Assembly: GCA_964016885.1 (NCBI GenBank)
Contig: CAXHJY010000290.1
Span: 1 to 47,190, forward strand
DNA length: 47,190 bases
From: Eledone cirrhosa
Taxonomy: Eukaryota
Reading direction: 5' to 3'
The notes below the pieces were generated by a model. The model worked only from the letters and a program-made list of their open reading frames with translations. It had not been told where the DNA came from and made no database searches. A program made the position numbers and the translations under genes. Below are positions 5,084 through 46,509 of this stretch, piece by piece (position 1 is the first letter of the stretch; every line of letters begins with the position of its first letter).

Positions 5084-5720
5084 CGTTGTTCCGGGTTGAA
5101 TCGGAGGTAACCACAGTAAGTAAGGTACTCAATACATAGCAGAGTATAACAGTTTTAATATAGATGAGATTCTACAGGACTAGAACTGTTTCATTCATTA
5201 GAAATCATCAGGAATCTGGGTATCAAAAAATAAATATGGTATTTATAGGTCTCTACAAGTGGTAGGAGAGGGTGGTGAGTGGGATGGGTGCAGGTCATTG
5301 GTTGATAGAAAAGGGAATTCATTAAAAGCTAATTCTACAAAGCTATAGTTAATTTTTATTTTTATTTATATTTATTTATGTTTTTAGAGTAACAAAGGCA
5401 GACAGAATTCTATAAACAGGTTCCGGATGGCATACCAATCCTTGTCAATAAGTTTCTCTTAAGCTAACAGATGTCTATAAAATCAGTGGGGGGTCAGTCA
5501 TGCTCGTTAGAATTAAAGAAAAGGGAGATTCTTTAAAAGCTAAAGTCATTAAGGTTCTACTAAGTGACAAAGGTCTAGAGAATTCTGCAGACAGATTCAA
5601 AATAATGAGTGCATATCTTACTATTATCTTCGAACTTCTCTTAAACTAATCAACAATATGCCAAAAATCAACACACATTCACAAAAAAACAAAAAAACAA
5701 AAAACAGAAAAACAAAAATC
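5084..5720 (-). mobile_element. Family C: PLE pseudo-LTR / 3' end, probably the 3' end of the PLE at 8192-9625
   Basis: Contains a hammerhead on the same strand as the upstream PLE ORF; its first ~135 nt recur at 46310-46444. Confidence 0.65.
5167..5217 (-). ncRNA. Minimal type I hammerhead ribozyme (family C)
   Basis: AGATTC-CTGATGA-TTTCTAATGAAT-GAAAC-AGTTCTAGTCCT-GTA-GAATCT: 6-bp stem I, intact core, GUA site, CTAG palindrome in loop III. Confidence 0.85.
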
Positions 5721-8012
5721 ACACATAAAAAACAAAAAAACACACATACTCACTCACACACTTACGCGCAACCATAAACACACACACAAACGCATATACA
5801 CACATAAAAACACACACACATATATAAAAAAATATATAAATATATATAAATATATATTCATGTACACACACATACATACACACATACATACATCCATATA
5901 TAATACATATACACATATACAAACACACATATATATATATATATATATATATATACATATATATATATATATATACATATATATATATATATATATATAT
6001 ATATATATATATATATATATATATACACACACACATACACACACACACACATATATACATATATATATATATATATATATATATATATATATACACATAT
6101 ATATATATATATATATATATATATATACACACACAGATACACACACACATACACATACATACACACACACACACATATATACACAAATAAATACACTCAC
6201 ACGCATACATACAAACACGAGTATACATATGTATAAATATCTATACACACACACATACACACATATATACATATATATATACATATATATACATATATAT
6301 ATATATATATATATACAGACATATAACGCACATATACACACACATATATACATACACATATATATATATATATATATATATATATATATATATATATACA
6401 CATATATATACACACACACATATATATATATATATATATACACACACGCGCGCATACACACATACACACACCCACACACAGAATATATATACACACACAC
6501 TCTCTCTCTCATGCACATATATATATATACATATACACACATATATACATATATATACATACATATATATATATATATATATATATATATATATATATAT
6601 ATATACATATACATATATATATATATATACATACACATATACACATATATATACATACATACATATACACACATATATATACATATACACACACAAATAC
6701 ACACACATACACACATATATACATATACATACACACATACACATACATATACACATATATATACACACACATATACACACATACGCACACACACACATAT
6801 ATATATATATATATATATACCCACACATATACACATACATACACATATATATATATATATATATATATATATATATATATATATATATATATATATATAT
6901 ATATATATACACATATTCACACACATACAACTACACATACATATACATATATATATATATATATATATATATATATATATATATATATATATATATATAT
7001 ATACACACATATATATATATATACACATATATATATACTCACATTCATATACATACATATACACACACACACATACACGCATATGCATATATACATACAA
7101 ATACACACACATACACATATATATACATATATATACATATGTATATATATATATATATACATATATATATATATATATATACACACACCTGCCCACACAA
7201 TCATATACATATATATATACACACATATACATATATACATATATATATATATATATATATATATATATATATATATATATATATATATATATACACACAC
7301 ACACACGCACACACATACATACATACATACACACACACATACATATACATATATACATATACACATATACATATATATATATATATATATATATACACAC
7401 ATACATACACACATACATACATATACATGCATACATATATATATATATATATATATATATATATATATATATACACATATATATATATATATATATATAT
7501 ATACACACATACATATACACATATATATACACACATATACACACACATACATACATACACACATACACATACATATACATAAACATACACACACACATAC
7601 ACACATATACATACATACACACACATACACACACACATATATATATATATATATATATATATATATATATATATATATATATACACACACATACATATAC
7701 ACAAACACATACATACATATACATAAATATACACACATAAAACACATATACACACAAACATATATATATACATATATATATATACACATATATACATATA
7801 TATACATATATATATATATATACATATAAACATACATACATACATACATATACACAAACACATACATACATATACCTACATAAATATACACACATAAAAC
7901 ACATATACACACAAACATATATATATATACATATATATACATATATATATATATATATATATACACACACACATACACATATACACATATACAAACAAAT
8001 ATATACACATAC
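5721..8012. repeat. Mixed (CA)n/(TA)n/(TACA)n microsatellite, more CA-rich than the other tracts
   Basis: Direct reading. Confidence 0.95.
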
Positions 8013-8191
8013 AAGTAAATAGGTACTCAATAAATATACGCATATACACAGGCACATAAAGACACCTCTACAGGCAGAAAATGTAGATACGAAAGAGGTA
8101 CTCACATGACCATAGTGGCCGTATTTCAGGTTGAGGAGGGGTGGGGGTTGGGTGGGGAGGAGGTATAGGGGCCAATAGGGGGAGGTCGTTT

Positions 8192-43953: not shown

Positions 43954-44816
43954 CATTATGAAGAGAGAAGAAACATTTAGATATAATTAGTAATAAAATA
44001 TATCATACCTAAACTGCTTCTAAATTTATCAAGAGGATACCTCATTTTACTAGTCTCAAGAACGCGTCTACACGACGTGAGAAAGAATCCCAAAAAGCGG
44101 AGGGGGAGATAGTCACGCGATATAACGGTCGAGAAACAGAGCTAAGCCTCTTATAACCCCGAAGAAAATACCACGGAGGTGGAGGGGGTATTTATATCGA
44201 GGCCGTAGAAGAGGTGGTGTAGGCGGCGAGAAGTATGAGTAATGGAAGCTTTCCAGCTGTCCTCACACTTCAAAGATTGCTCGACCAGAGGGAGTTATTA
44301 ACAATATATTTAGAAACACACAGATACATGCGGACACACACATATATACATGAATGCATCCGCACCCAACTGTGAGTTAAGGGTGCCAACTTCACCGATG
44401 TTGCTCAATGAATGACTGGAACAGACCTATCCAGTTGAACTGGACTGAACCAGTATCAGAGTTAAAAATGCATTATGAAGAGAGAAGAAACATTTAGATA
44501 TAATTAGTAATAAAATGTATCATACCTAAACTGCTTCTAAATTCCTCGACTACGTAGTTTCGTGGCATAAACAAAAACAATATATCATAAAGACATAGAG
44601 TACTTGCGAGGTCTGCCGACTTATCAAGAGGATACCTCATTTTACTAGTCTCAAGAACGCGTCTACACGACGTGAGAAAGAATCCCAAAAGGCGGAGGGG
44701 GAGAATAGTCACGCGATATAACGGTCGAGAAACAGAGCTAAGCCTCTTATAACCCCGAGGAAAATACTGGTTCAGTCTAGTTCAACTGGATAGGTCTGTT
44801 CCAGTCATTCATTGAG
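43954..44816 (-). mobile_element. Family I: non-coding tandem-repeat PLE-type / retrozyme-like element with inverted end segment
   Basis: Direct repeat 43954-44171 / 44471-44767; inverted repeat 44404-44456 / 44764-44816; hammerhead in the second repeat. Confidence 0.7.
44543..44632 (-). ncRNA. Type I hammerhead ribozyme with U3:A8 variant core
   Basis: TCCTC-TTGATAA-GTCGGCA..TGCCAC-GAAAC-TACGTA-GTC-GAGGA. Confidence 0.75.
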
Positions 44817-46309
44817 GTATATATATACATATATATATATATATATATATATATATATATATATATATATATATATATACATATATATATACATATATAT
44901 ATACATATATATATATATATATATATATATATATATATATATATATATATATATATATATATATATATATATACATATATATATATATATACATATATAT
45001 ATATACATATATATATATACATATATATATACATATATATATATATACATATATATATATATATATATATATATATATATATATATACATATATATATAT
45101 ACACATATATATATACATATATATATATACATATATATATATACATATATATATATATATATATATATATATATATACATATATATATATATATATACAT
45201 ATATATATATATATATACATATATATATATATATATATACATATATATATATATATATATATATATATATACATATATATATATATACATATATATATAC
45301 ATATATATATATACATATATATATATATATATATAGATATACATATATATATATACATATATATATATACATATATATATATACATACATATATATATAT
45401 ACATATATATATATACATATATATATATACATATATATATACATATATATATATATACATATATATATATATATATATATATATATATATATATGTATAT
45501 ATATATGTATATATATATATATATATATATATATATATATACATATATATATACATATATATATATATATATATATATACATATATATATATATATATAT
45601 ATATATATATATATATATATATATATACATATATATATATATACATATATATATATATATATATATATATATATATGTATATATATATATATATATATGT
45701 ATATGTATATATATATGTATATATATATATATATATATATATATATATGTATATATATATATATATATATATATGTATATATATATATATATATATATAT
45801 ATATATATATATATATGTATATGTATATATATATATATATATATGTATATATATATATATATATATATATATATATATGTATATATATATATATATATAT
45901 ATATATATATATATATGTATATATATATATATATATATATATATATATATATATATATATATATATATATATGTATATATATATATATATATATATATAT
46001 ATATATATGTATATATATATATATATATATATATATATATATATATATATATGTATATATATATATATATATGTATATATATATATATATATATATATAT
46101 ATATGTATATATATATATATATATATATATATATATATATATGTATATATATATATATGTATATATATATATATATATATATGTATATATATATATATAT
46201 ATATATATATATATGTATATATATATATATACATATATATATATATATATATATATACGTATATATATATATATATATACATATATATATATATATATAC
46301 ATATATATA
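44817..46309. repeat. Interrupted (TA)n microsatellite with C-to-G polarity switch
   Basis: Direct reading. Confidence 0.95.
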
Positions 46310-46509
46310 CGTTATTCCGGGTTGAATCGGAGGTAACCACAGTAGGTAAGGTACTCAATACATAGCAGAGTATAACAGTTTTAATATAGATGAGATTCTA
46401 CAGGACTAGAACTGTTTCATTCATTAGAAATCATCAGGAATCTGCTTCCTGATGATTTCTAATGAATGAAACAGTTCTAGTCCTGTAGAATCTCATCTAT
46501 ATTAAAACT
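46310..46509. mobile_element. Family C fold-back mini-insertion with hammerheads on both strands
   Basis: 67-nt tail, arms 46377-46440 / 46446-46509, 5-nt spacer; hammerhead at 46393-46443 (-) and 46446-46490 (+, 3-bp stem I). Confidence 0.85.

Follow-up and report, generated by a model that had tools for sequence, protein, structure and literature searches.

Hammerhead motifs in a TA-repeat tract of Eledone cirrhosa: probable Penelope-like element ends and retrozyme-like passengers

A 47,190-nt stretch of Eledone cirrhosa DNA (assembly GCA_964016885.1, contig CAXHJY010000290.1; hereafter the window) contains insertions of Penelope-like elements (PLEs) and repeat families with type I hammerhead ribozyme (HH) motifs. 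TA/CA or TA/TG dinucleotide repeat masks 54.6% of the window and the remaining sequence forms islands, whose limits were drawn at the repeat-mask boundaries. The window is probably an unstable TA tract carrying ordinary HH-ended PLE insertions, in which family C is the cis 3' end of one PLE (PLE1) and families D and I are retrozyme-like passengers of PLEs. A sequence-only reading had instead taken the array for a targeted niche, and C, D, G and I for independent small ribozyme RNAs that its two PLEs mobilise in trans.

HHs were sought with a descriptor scan for the type I core, and the background was set by 200 mononucleotide shuffles of the 17,006 non-redundant island bases. The non-redundant islands hold four type I HHs; the shuffles gave 0.33 on average and never more than 2. 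The cores lie where they had been claimed: in C at 5211 (minus strand, cut after 5173) and 46437 (minus), in D at 13017, 14937 and 28043 (all plus), in G at 20040 (minus) and in I at 44627 (minus, U3-A8 type). A second core in the distal C copy (46449, plus), part of a fold-back, had been overlooked. All four families have the CUGANGA core or its U3-A8 variant, GAAA, a UH site and three helices, and by these sequence features their HH motifs are genuine. A further descriptor match, in a long interspersed element (LINE), lacks the 3-8 pair and was dropped. Rfam was run separately on C, D, G and I. No hammerhead match was returned for C, D or I, and the only one for G was HH9 (E 0.0056), under the gathering threshold. 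On the whole window TA hairpins dominate the Rfam output, among the 150 of 1,114 matches listed.

The distance from cut site to 3' end is 89 nt in C, 68 in D, 53 in G and 75 in I. An HH 53–89 nt from a TA-abutting 3' end in every family is what independent ribozyme RNAs would show. The description of these HHs as minimal, mostly with a palindromic helix III, was only partly borne out. D and I have a perfect 10-nt palindrome, whereas that of G is imperfect (7 nt) and C has a 4-bp stem with CTAG in the loop. Nor are D and I minimal: the loop closed by their helix II measures at least about 37 nt. Predicted helix III duplexes have energies of -14.8 (C), -9.0 (D), -2.3 (G) and -12.9 kcal/mol (I); among predicted monomer hairpins only that of C forms, at -2.4 kcal/mol. 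The D and I HHs are predicted to act mainly as dimers, via the palindromic helix III.

PLE1 and family C occupy one end of the window.

8192..9625, minus strand: PLE1 open reading frame (ORF), 5'-truncated, uninterrupted reverse transcriptase (RT)-thumb-GIY-YIG, 477 amino acids (aa), Hydra-clade motifs
7994..8191, minus strand: PLE1 proximal 3' untranslated region (UTR), a diverged homologue of the C terminal module that has lost the HH core
5811..7993, minus strand: CA/TG-rich expanded spacer with a high CACA density, likely internal PLE1 3' UTR, having short motifs in common with the PLE1 UTR
5084..5810, minus strand: C1, likely the PLE1 3' end (pseudo-long terminal repeat, pLTR), TATA-like box at 5247, HH core at 5211
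46310..46508, unstranded: C2, a head-to-head fold-back of two 5'-truncated C ends

The presence of two PLE ORFs within the array, PLE1 and PLE2, was confirmed. PLE1 has 683 homologues (best E 6e-125). Its Pfam GIY-YIG match is weak (aa 360–386, E 0.0049, below the cut-off). Clade motifs were defined from section 11 of Craig 2021 (PMC8557442). PLE1 possesses the CxCX5C linker and CxxC and CxH around E/N, and by inspection lacks CCHH. Among 120 homologues, CxCX5C is present in 106, CxxC in 113 and CxH in 98; of the N-terminal RT motifs of the clade, DK[TS] is found in 96/120 and RWK in 60/120, the PLE1 copy itself being 5'-truncated.

C lies on the PLE1 strand, and the ORF ends 3 kb upstream of it. 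Homology was scored by local alignment against 300 shuffles. The last 200 nt of C scored 56 against the PLE1 post-stop region (30±6 in shuffles, 0/300), and with the HH removed 48 versus 28 (0/300). The 2.2-kb spacer between them contains CACA at 87/kb, compared with at most 4.4/kb in 22 other spacers, and short motifs at both its ends recur in the PLE1 UTR (5790/8038 and 5802/7735/7892/8054). These features make it likely that the CA-rich spacer is internal PLE1 3' UTR rather than target array. The homology to the PLE1 UTR, the unique CA-rich spacer and the motifs in common make C the likely 3' end of PLE1 in cis. An origin of C unrelated to PLE1 was rejected on homology and contiguity with the UTR, and the claim of otherwise unrelated families was not confirmed for C. 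The CA-rich body of C could still be read as a separate non-autonomous unit that landed beside PLE1. In C1 the type I HH has a GUA site and cleaves after 5173, leaving an 89-nt tail. Both arms of C2 are truncated immediately upstream of the HH core, and only one has a tail, of 68 nt. An identical TATA-box-like 10-mer is located upstream of the HH in C (5247, minus) and in I (44196, minus).

Related loci were examined for the same arrangement. An alignment-based metagenome scan yielded 77 PLE1-related loci; a scan with the single PLE1 protein gave 245 stretches and no relative. Forty-five of the 77 were assessable: in these a C-terminal match is followed by 250 nt or more of sequence. An HH lies 71–524 nt past the ORF match in 24/45; 14 of these 24 have the U...U helix II flank of C and 5 have a CAG-type helix III. 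With C as the 3' end, PLE1+C would have the HH near its 3' end and the (TA)n flanks of a Hydra-clade element, as both outer ends abut TA. Several observations weigh against this assignment. By the descriptor, 21/45 Hydra-like loci have no HH, and a (TA)4 run occurs within 200 nt in only 5/24 of the HH-bearing loci. The assignment implies a PLE1 3' UTR of 3.1 kb in a clade whose entire elements are described as <3 kb, and no read or contig was obtained that joins C to PLE1 in another copy. PLE1+C spans 4.5 kb though truncated, owing to the microsatellite spacer, and so exceeds that length; <3 kb is typical of the clade, not diagnostic.

D and I are ORF-less repeat families.

12555..13156, plus strand: D1, a 545-nt non-coding unit with 56-nt terminal redundancy, HH core at 13017
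43956..44817, minus strand: I, a non-coding repeat (unit ~587 nt) present in about 1.5 units, plus a 53-nt inverted head arm

D1 has a GUU site cut after 13088, and the copy begins at +12 past the cut site. The upstream unit of I carries a U3-A8 HH (core 44627, cut after 44548, GUC); the HH of the downstream unit has lost 70 nt. The 3' 200 nt of D and I align with a score of 67 versus 34±6 (0/300 shuffles), so these two families are not otherwise unrelated either. In a pairwise comparison of the two families, D has C3-G8 where I has U3-A8, and a double change in helix III preserves the palindrome. On these alignments D and I are diverged sister families. Their longest stop-free frames are 58 (D) and 95 codons (I), and neither has a tblastn match to 122 PLE proteins. 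Folding of each unit against 100 shuffles gave z scores of -7.05 for D and -6.14 for I (0/100 each), in contrast to -1.47 and -1.21 for equal lengths of C and G. GC content is 36% in D and 40% in I. Both families therefore show retrozyme traits: a non-coding unit, one type I HH, GC under 50% and high self-pairing. A tandem of at least two units with complete HHs is absent from the window, where D comprises 1.1 units and I 1.5 with one HH deleted. At the D tail-head junction (12559–12652) there is a GTAAGT donor-like site and a downstream AG acceptor-like site, which recall the 5' UTR intron across the pLTR boundary in Penelope and Chlamys-3.

The abundance of D outside the window was examined in 4 of the 13 listed sequencing runs, over the unit without its terminal repeats (12545–12598 and 13100–13166). 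D is high-copy along its unit. In run X11, a restriction-site-associated DNA (RAD) library, 6,385 of 12.47 million reads (0.05%) fell on D, and in run X1 1,032 contigs did so. A second organism (run X5) carries D over 24/30 bins. Read depth is as great over the 5' head as over the HH end. Some 90% of the reads on the head seem to extend into the upstream tail, a rough estimate from the binned depth of one partly covered bin. D multimers outside the window are possible because the tail-to-head junction appears to be family-wide. None of the 40 listed D variants (of 136) falls in the 45 structured HH positions, where 3.6 were expected (p about 0.02); loop II holds 4 of the 40. X11 read ends at 12726, 12779–12785, 12946, 13034 and 13084 coincide with AATT sites; they were treated as library restriction ends and rejected as biology. 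TA-type loose ends at 12723–12738, in 5 contigs of X1 and 2 of X4, may represent a second 3' end or microsatellite growth.

These results suggest that D and I are likely non-autonomous, non-LTR retrozyme-like passengers of PLEs. Some of the data point the other way. Between the heads of D and I the similarity is not significant (70/300 shuffles), and between their tails it is weak (16/300). The G10.1-C11.1 pair is missing from D, the window contains no D multimer, and in C, D and G the monomer minimum free energy structure is not the HH fold. The variant-conservation figure rests on 40 of 136 variants, and 152/1,714 reads have an extra C at the helix I edge of D.

We considered whether every HH family, D and I included, derives from autonomous PLEs that move in cis, as 5'-truncated ends or ends with internal deletions, so that no non-autonomous family exists. 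Most animal minimal HHs are single motifs, probably from truncated PLEs (Cervera 2014, PMC4209133), and helix III of D is identical to that of the Hydra-like locus L012. Against it stand the tail-to-head junction of D into a 545-nt ORF-less unit, apparently throughout the family and with depth steady towards the head, the corresponding junction of I into a unit of ~587 nt, and the unusual self-pairing of both. We regard this explanation as improbable. A stronger version of the passenger reading is tentative: D and I would be old, unreported, dispersed high-copy SINE (short interspersed element)-like retrozymes, likely octopod, with HHs under selection and circular RNAs of about 550–590 nt, inserted into (TA)n by a Hydra-clade PLE. 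In that version the long-loop HHs of D and I would have been kept by selection via covarying changes.

The other two D copies are not independent of D1.

14475..15076, plus strand: D2, local duplicate of D1, with private alleles, the upstream B element and the TATCCATA-bearing flank in common
27580..28178, plus strand: D3, local duplicate of D1

D1-3 agree at 9/11 tested alleles that deviate from the family majority and have the same B element upstream. The TATCCATA flank variant occurs 22 times in the window, in every case behind a D copy. Because alleles, B element and flank are common to the three, D1-3 represent one insertion duplicated locally, and independent insertions were rejected. 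A-B-D, B-D and F blocks are likewise duplicated in the window. Between 15077 and 36301 the microsatellite alternates several times between C-rich (TACA) and G-rich (TATG) polarity, which suggests inversions inside the tract.

Family G consists of a 3' end.

19956..21122, minus strand: G, an AT-rich solo 3' end of 1.17 kb, HH core at 20040

Its HH is the most canonical of the four, with G10.1-C11.1 and a GUU site. G has no ORF of more than 71 codons, no PLE protein match, no unit repeat and no special structure.

PLE2 and family E form a further group.

36302..38038, plus strand: PLE2, 5'-truncated, ORF broken by a stop at 36883–36885 and then a frameshift
11644..11860, unstranded: E1, a head-to-head fold-back of the PLE2 3' end, arms 100% identical
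18603..18702, plus strand: E2, a relative of the PLE2 3' end, 86% identical

Family E is thus the PLE2 3' end. The PLE2 translation contains a CX4CxxC linker and a CCHH endonuclease (EN), and by these EN motifs PLE2 is of the Neptune/Nematis type. An EN homologue search among 264 candidates found none at E<=0.001, the core RT being absent from this copy, and there was no Pfam match. PLE2 has a 134-nt inverted arm at its 5' end and a 60-nt one-sided tail. It contains a half-HH at 37726, with core, 6-bp helix II and GAAA but neither helix I nor III, and an antisense remnant at 38005 (minus) with three core mismatches; these may be the two degenerate HHs previously noted in PLE2. Similar antisense sites occur at 11827 (minus) and, in the relative E2, at 18667 (minus). 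The inverted 5' arm (36302) starts exactly at the GUU of the antisense remnant. Because the remnant lies past an internal (TA)6 at about 37867, it may belong to an inverted pLTR captured by the PLE2 end. Family B (11885–12098, 13905–14126, 27010–27223 and 3413–3454) resembles PLEs in its head-to-head arms and in its one-sided tail of 54 nt. Its last ~135 nt contain no hammerhead, and it is possibly a hammerhead-less (Naiad-like) end. Head-to-head arms with one-sided tails of 54–68 nt are present in C2, E1, PLE2 and B.

That every element abuts TA was found to be correct and uninformative, as the islands are defined by TA boundaries. Each of the 17 listed blocks adjoins TA or TA-like repeat. 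Three LINE pieces, one SINE-like insert and one Helitron-like insert are among them, and the MITE (miniature inverted-repeat transposable element)-like inserts abut TA as well. Two LINEs encoding apurinic/apyrimidinic (AP) endonuclease and RT lie at 22559–26284 and 38605–42572. The piece L2 (28955–29637) is an internal fragment of L3, the second LINE (98.7% identical), with TA on both sides. The highest-identity named match of a window LINE is from the octopod Argonauta hians (57%). TA abutment was rejected as PLE-specific evidence. An insert at 9700–10577 with a 221-bp tandem duplication is presumably Helitron-like, one at 4205–4427 we take to be SINE-like, and family A (1600–2207, 11228–11598, 26587–26957) we assume to be MITE-like; the first two would resemble octopus repeats. 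Two identical 380-bp inserts (32377–32756 and 33857–34236) each contain a near-perfect 310-bp palindrome.

The tract may be a passive sink, in which all classes of element survive in or seed TA repeats, and their co-location reflects array instability and low selection rather than targeting by an endonuclease. The TA-bounded LINE, SINE-, Helitron- and MITE-like inserts, the L2 fragment and the duplicated blocks are as expected from such a sink. However, both arms of every fold-back in the window end in TA, and a preference for (TA)n is reported for almost all Hydra families (Craig 2021, PMC8557442). This explanation, partly compatible with ours, we judge rather unlikely. TA bounds the non-PLE elements and an internal LINE fragment just as it does the PLEs, and the window therefore does not separate targeting from passive accumulation.

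The same observations bear on the proposal of independent ribozyme RNAs in a targeted niche. D and I do fit trans-mobilised units, and trans mobilisation is plausible for these two, which are complete, ORF-less, structured and partially tandem, with D at high copy. C is better read as a PLE1 cis 3' end, and G, which has no unit repeat or special structure, is not assignable. The D copies, which are duplicates, and the non-PLE inserts, which abut TA as well, also speak against the proposal. Both window PLEs are 5'-truncated and PLE2 is broken; therefore these copies are not the enzyme source. As a whole the proposal is very unlikely.

For the reading of an unstable tract with PLE ends and passengers, the motifs, homologies, geometry, D abundance and duplicates are observed, and from them we infer a pathway of targeting, expression, cleavage and mobilisation of D and I by a PLE enzyme. 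The PLE GIY-YIG endonuclease would nick (TA)n. RT would start at one of two sites downstream of the HH and usually stop early or fold back; the head-to-head pairs and one-sided tails would arise in this way. Transcripts of D and I would exceed unit length; their HH would either set the RNA 5' end or make circles, and RT would read through uncut HHs. Later local duplication and breakage of the tract would have led to D2, D3 and the truncated fragments.

Most of the window illustrates published PLE biology. What it adds is D and I, related, abundant, ORF-less HH repeats inserted in the manner of PLEs; they could be used as short substrates to test trans-mobilisation. If the stronger version holds, D/I and a PLE would form a natural parasite-helper pair for testing RNA recognition in trans and the role of the HH. 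Neither that role within the PLE cycle nor the mobiliser of retrozymes in animals is settled. The window also calls for caution, as a single element can be mistaken for several families when microsatellite growth expands its 3' UTR or copies are duplicated locally.

PLE1 and C resemble the Hydra clade of Craig 2021 (PMC8557442), which carries HHs and is almost always found in (TA)n, Hydra-1_Obim included. PLE1 has the C-terminal GIY-YIG, CxCX5C and CxxC/CxH without CCHH, and C has an HH about 100 nt from the 3' end and a (TA)n insertion site. GUU cleavage sites are frequent in the clade, and head-to-head arms with one-sided tails are a PLE signature. Among the HHs listed there, many have the CUGAUGAU...UGAA flank of C, and several have an ACAG/CUGU helix III and GUU/GUA sites. 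The C/PLE1 family is distinct from Hydra-1_oBim because the HH sequence listed for that element differs from that of C and because five short motifs from the window are all missing from the part of the supplement compared. Unlike the clade, PLE1 would have a 3' UTR that microsatellite growth has lengthened to 3.1 kb and that contains a decayed copy of the terminal module at its proximal end.

Cervera and De la Pena (2014, PMC4209133) described HHs in PLE pLTRs, a dimer model, the U3-A8 variant and opposite-strand pairs. The window HHs share with these metazoan PLE HHs the type I core, an extra nucleotide after A9 and a palindromic helix III. The window as a whole shares with the cases in that paper the U3-A8 variant, opposite-strand dual motifs, many families per genome, mostly solo motifs and predicted dimer activity. 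D and I differ from the minimal HHs in that paper by a long loop II and the absence of G10.1-C11.1, and C differs by its 4-bp helix III and 8-nt loop.

Animal non-LTR retrozymes, with PLEs as proposed mobilisers, are treated by Cervera and de la Pena (2020, PMC7229834) and in a preprint by Li, Clavereau and Pollet (2026, 10.64898/2026.07.22.740005). No description of octopod retrozymes was found in the open literature; Repbase, subscription journals or the Li 2026 supplements could hold the D and I families. D and I are like animal retrozymes in being non-coding, under 50% GC, self-paired and high-copy, with one type I HH per unit and PLEs alongside. They are unlike them in forming partial tandems of 1.1 and 1.5 units with PLE-style redundancy or inversion rather than multimer arrays. 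Their lengths (545 and ~587 nt) exceed the 170–400 nt reported for invertebrates and lie inside the 51–972 bp range of Li 2026. Circular RNA is a retrozyme trait, and D and I are known here from DNA sequence alone.

In the Poseidon element PAc, two RT start sites explain the one-sided tails (Frangieh et al. 2024, PMC11167929). The window elements would share its AT-rich cleavage, and read-through of an intact HH in I implies that uncut RNA is the main substrate, as in PAc. The window PLEs belong to a different clade, and their tails are 54–68 nt versus the 30–40 bp given for Drosophila Penelope in that source. Precedents also exist for pLTR-directed mobilisation in trans (PMC3846280) and for plant element arrays built through microsatellite targeting (PMC5907723).

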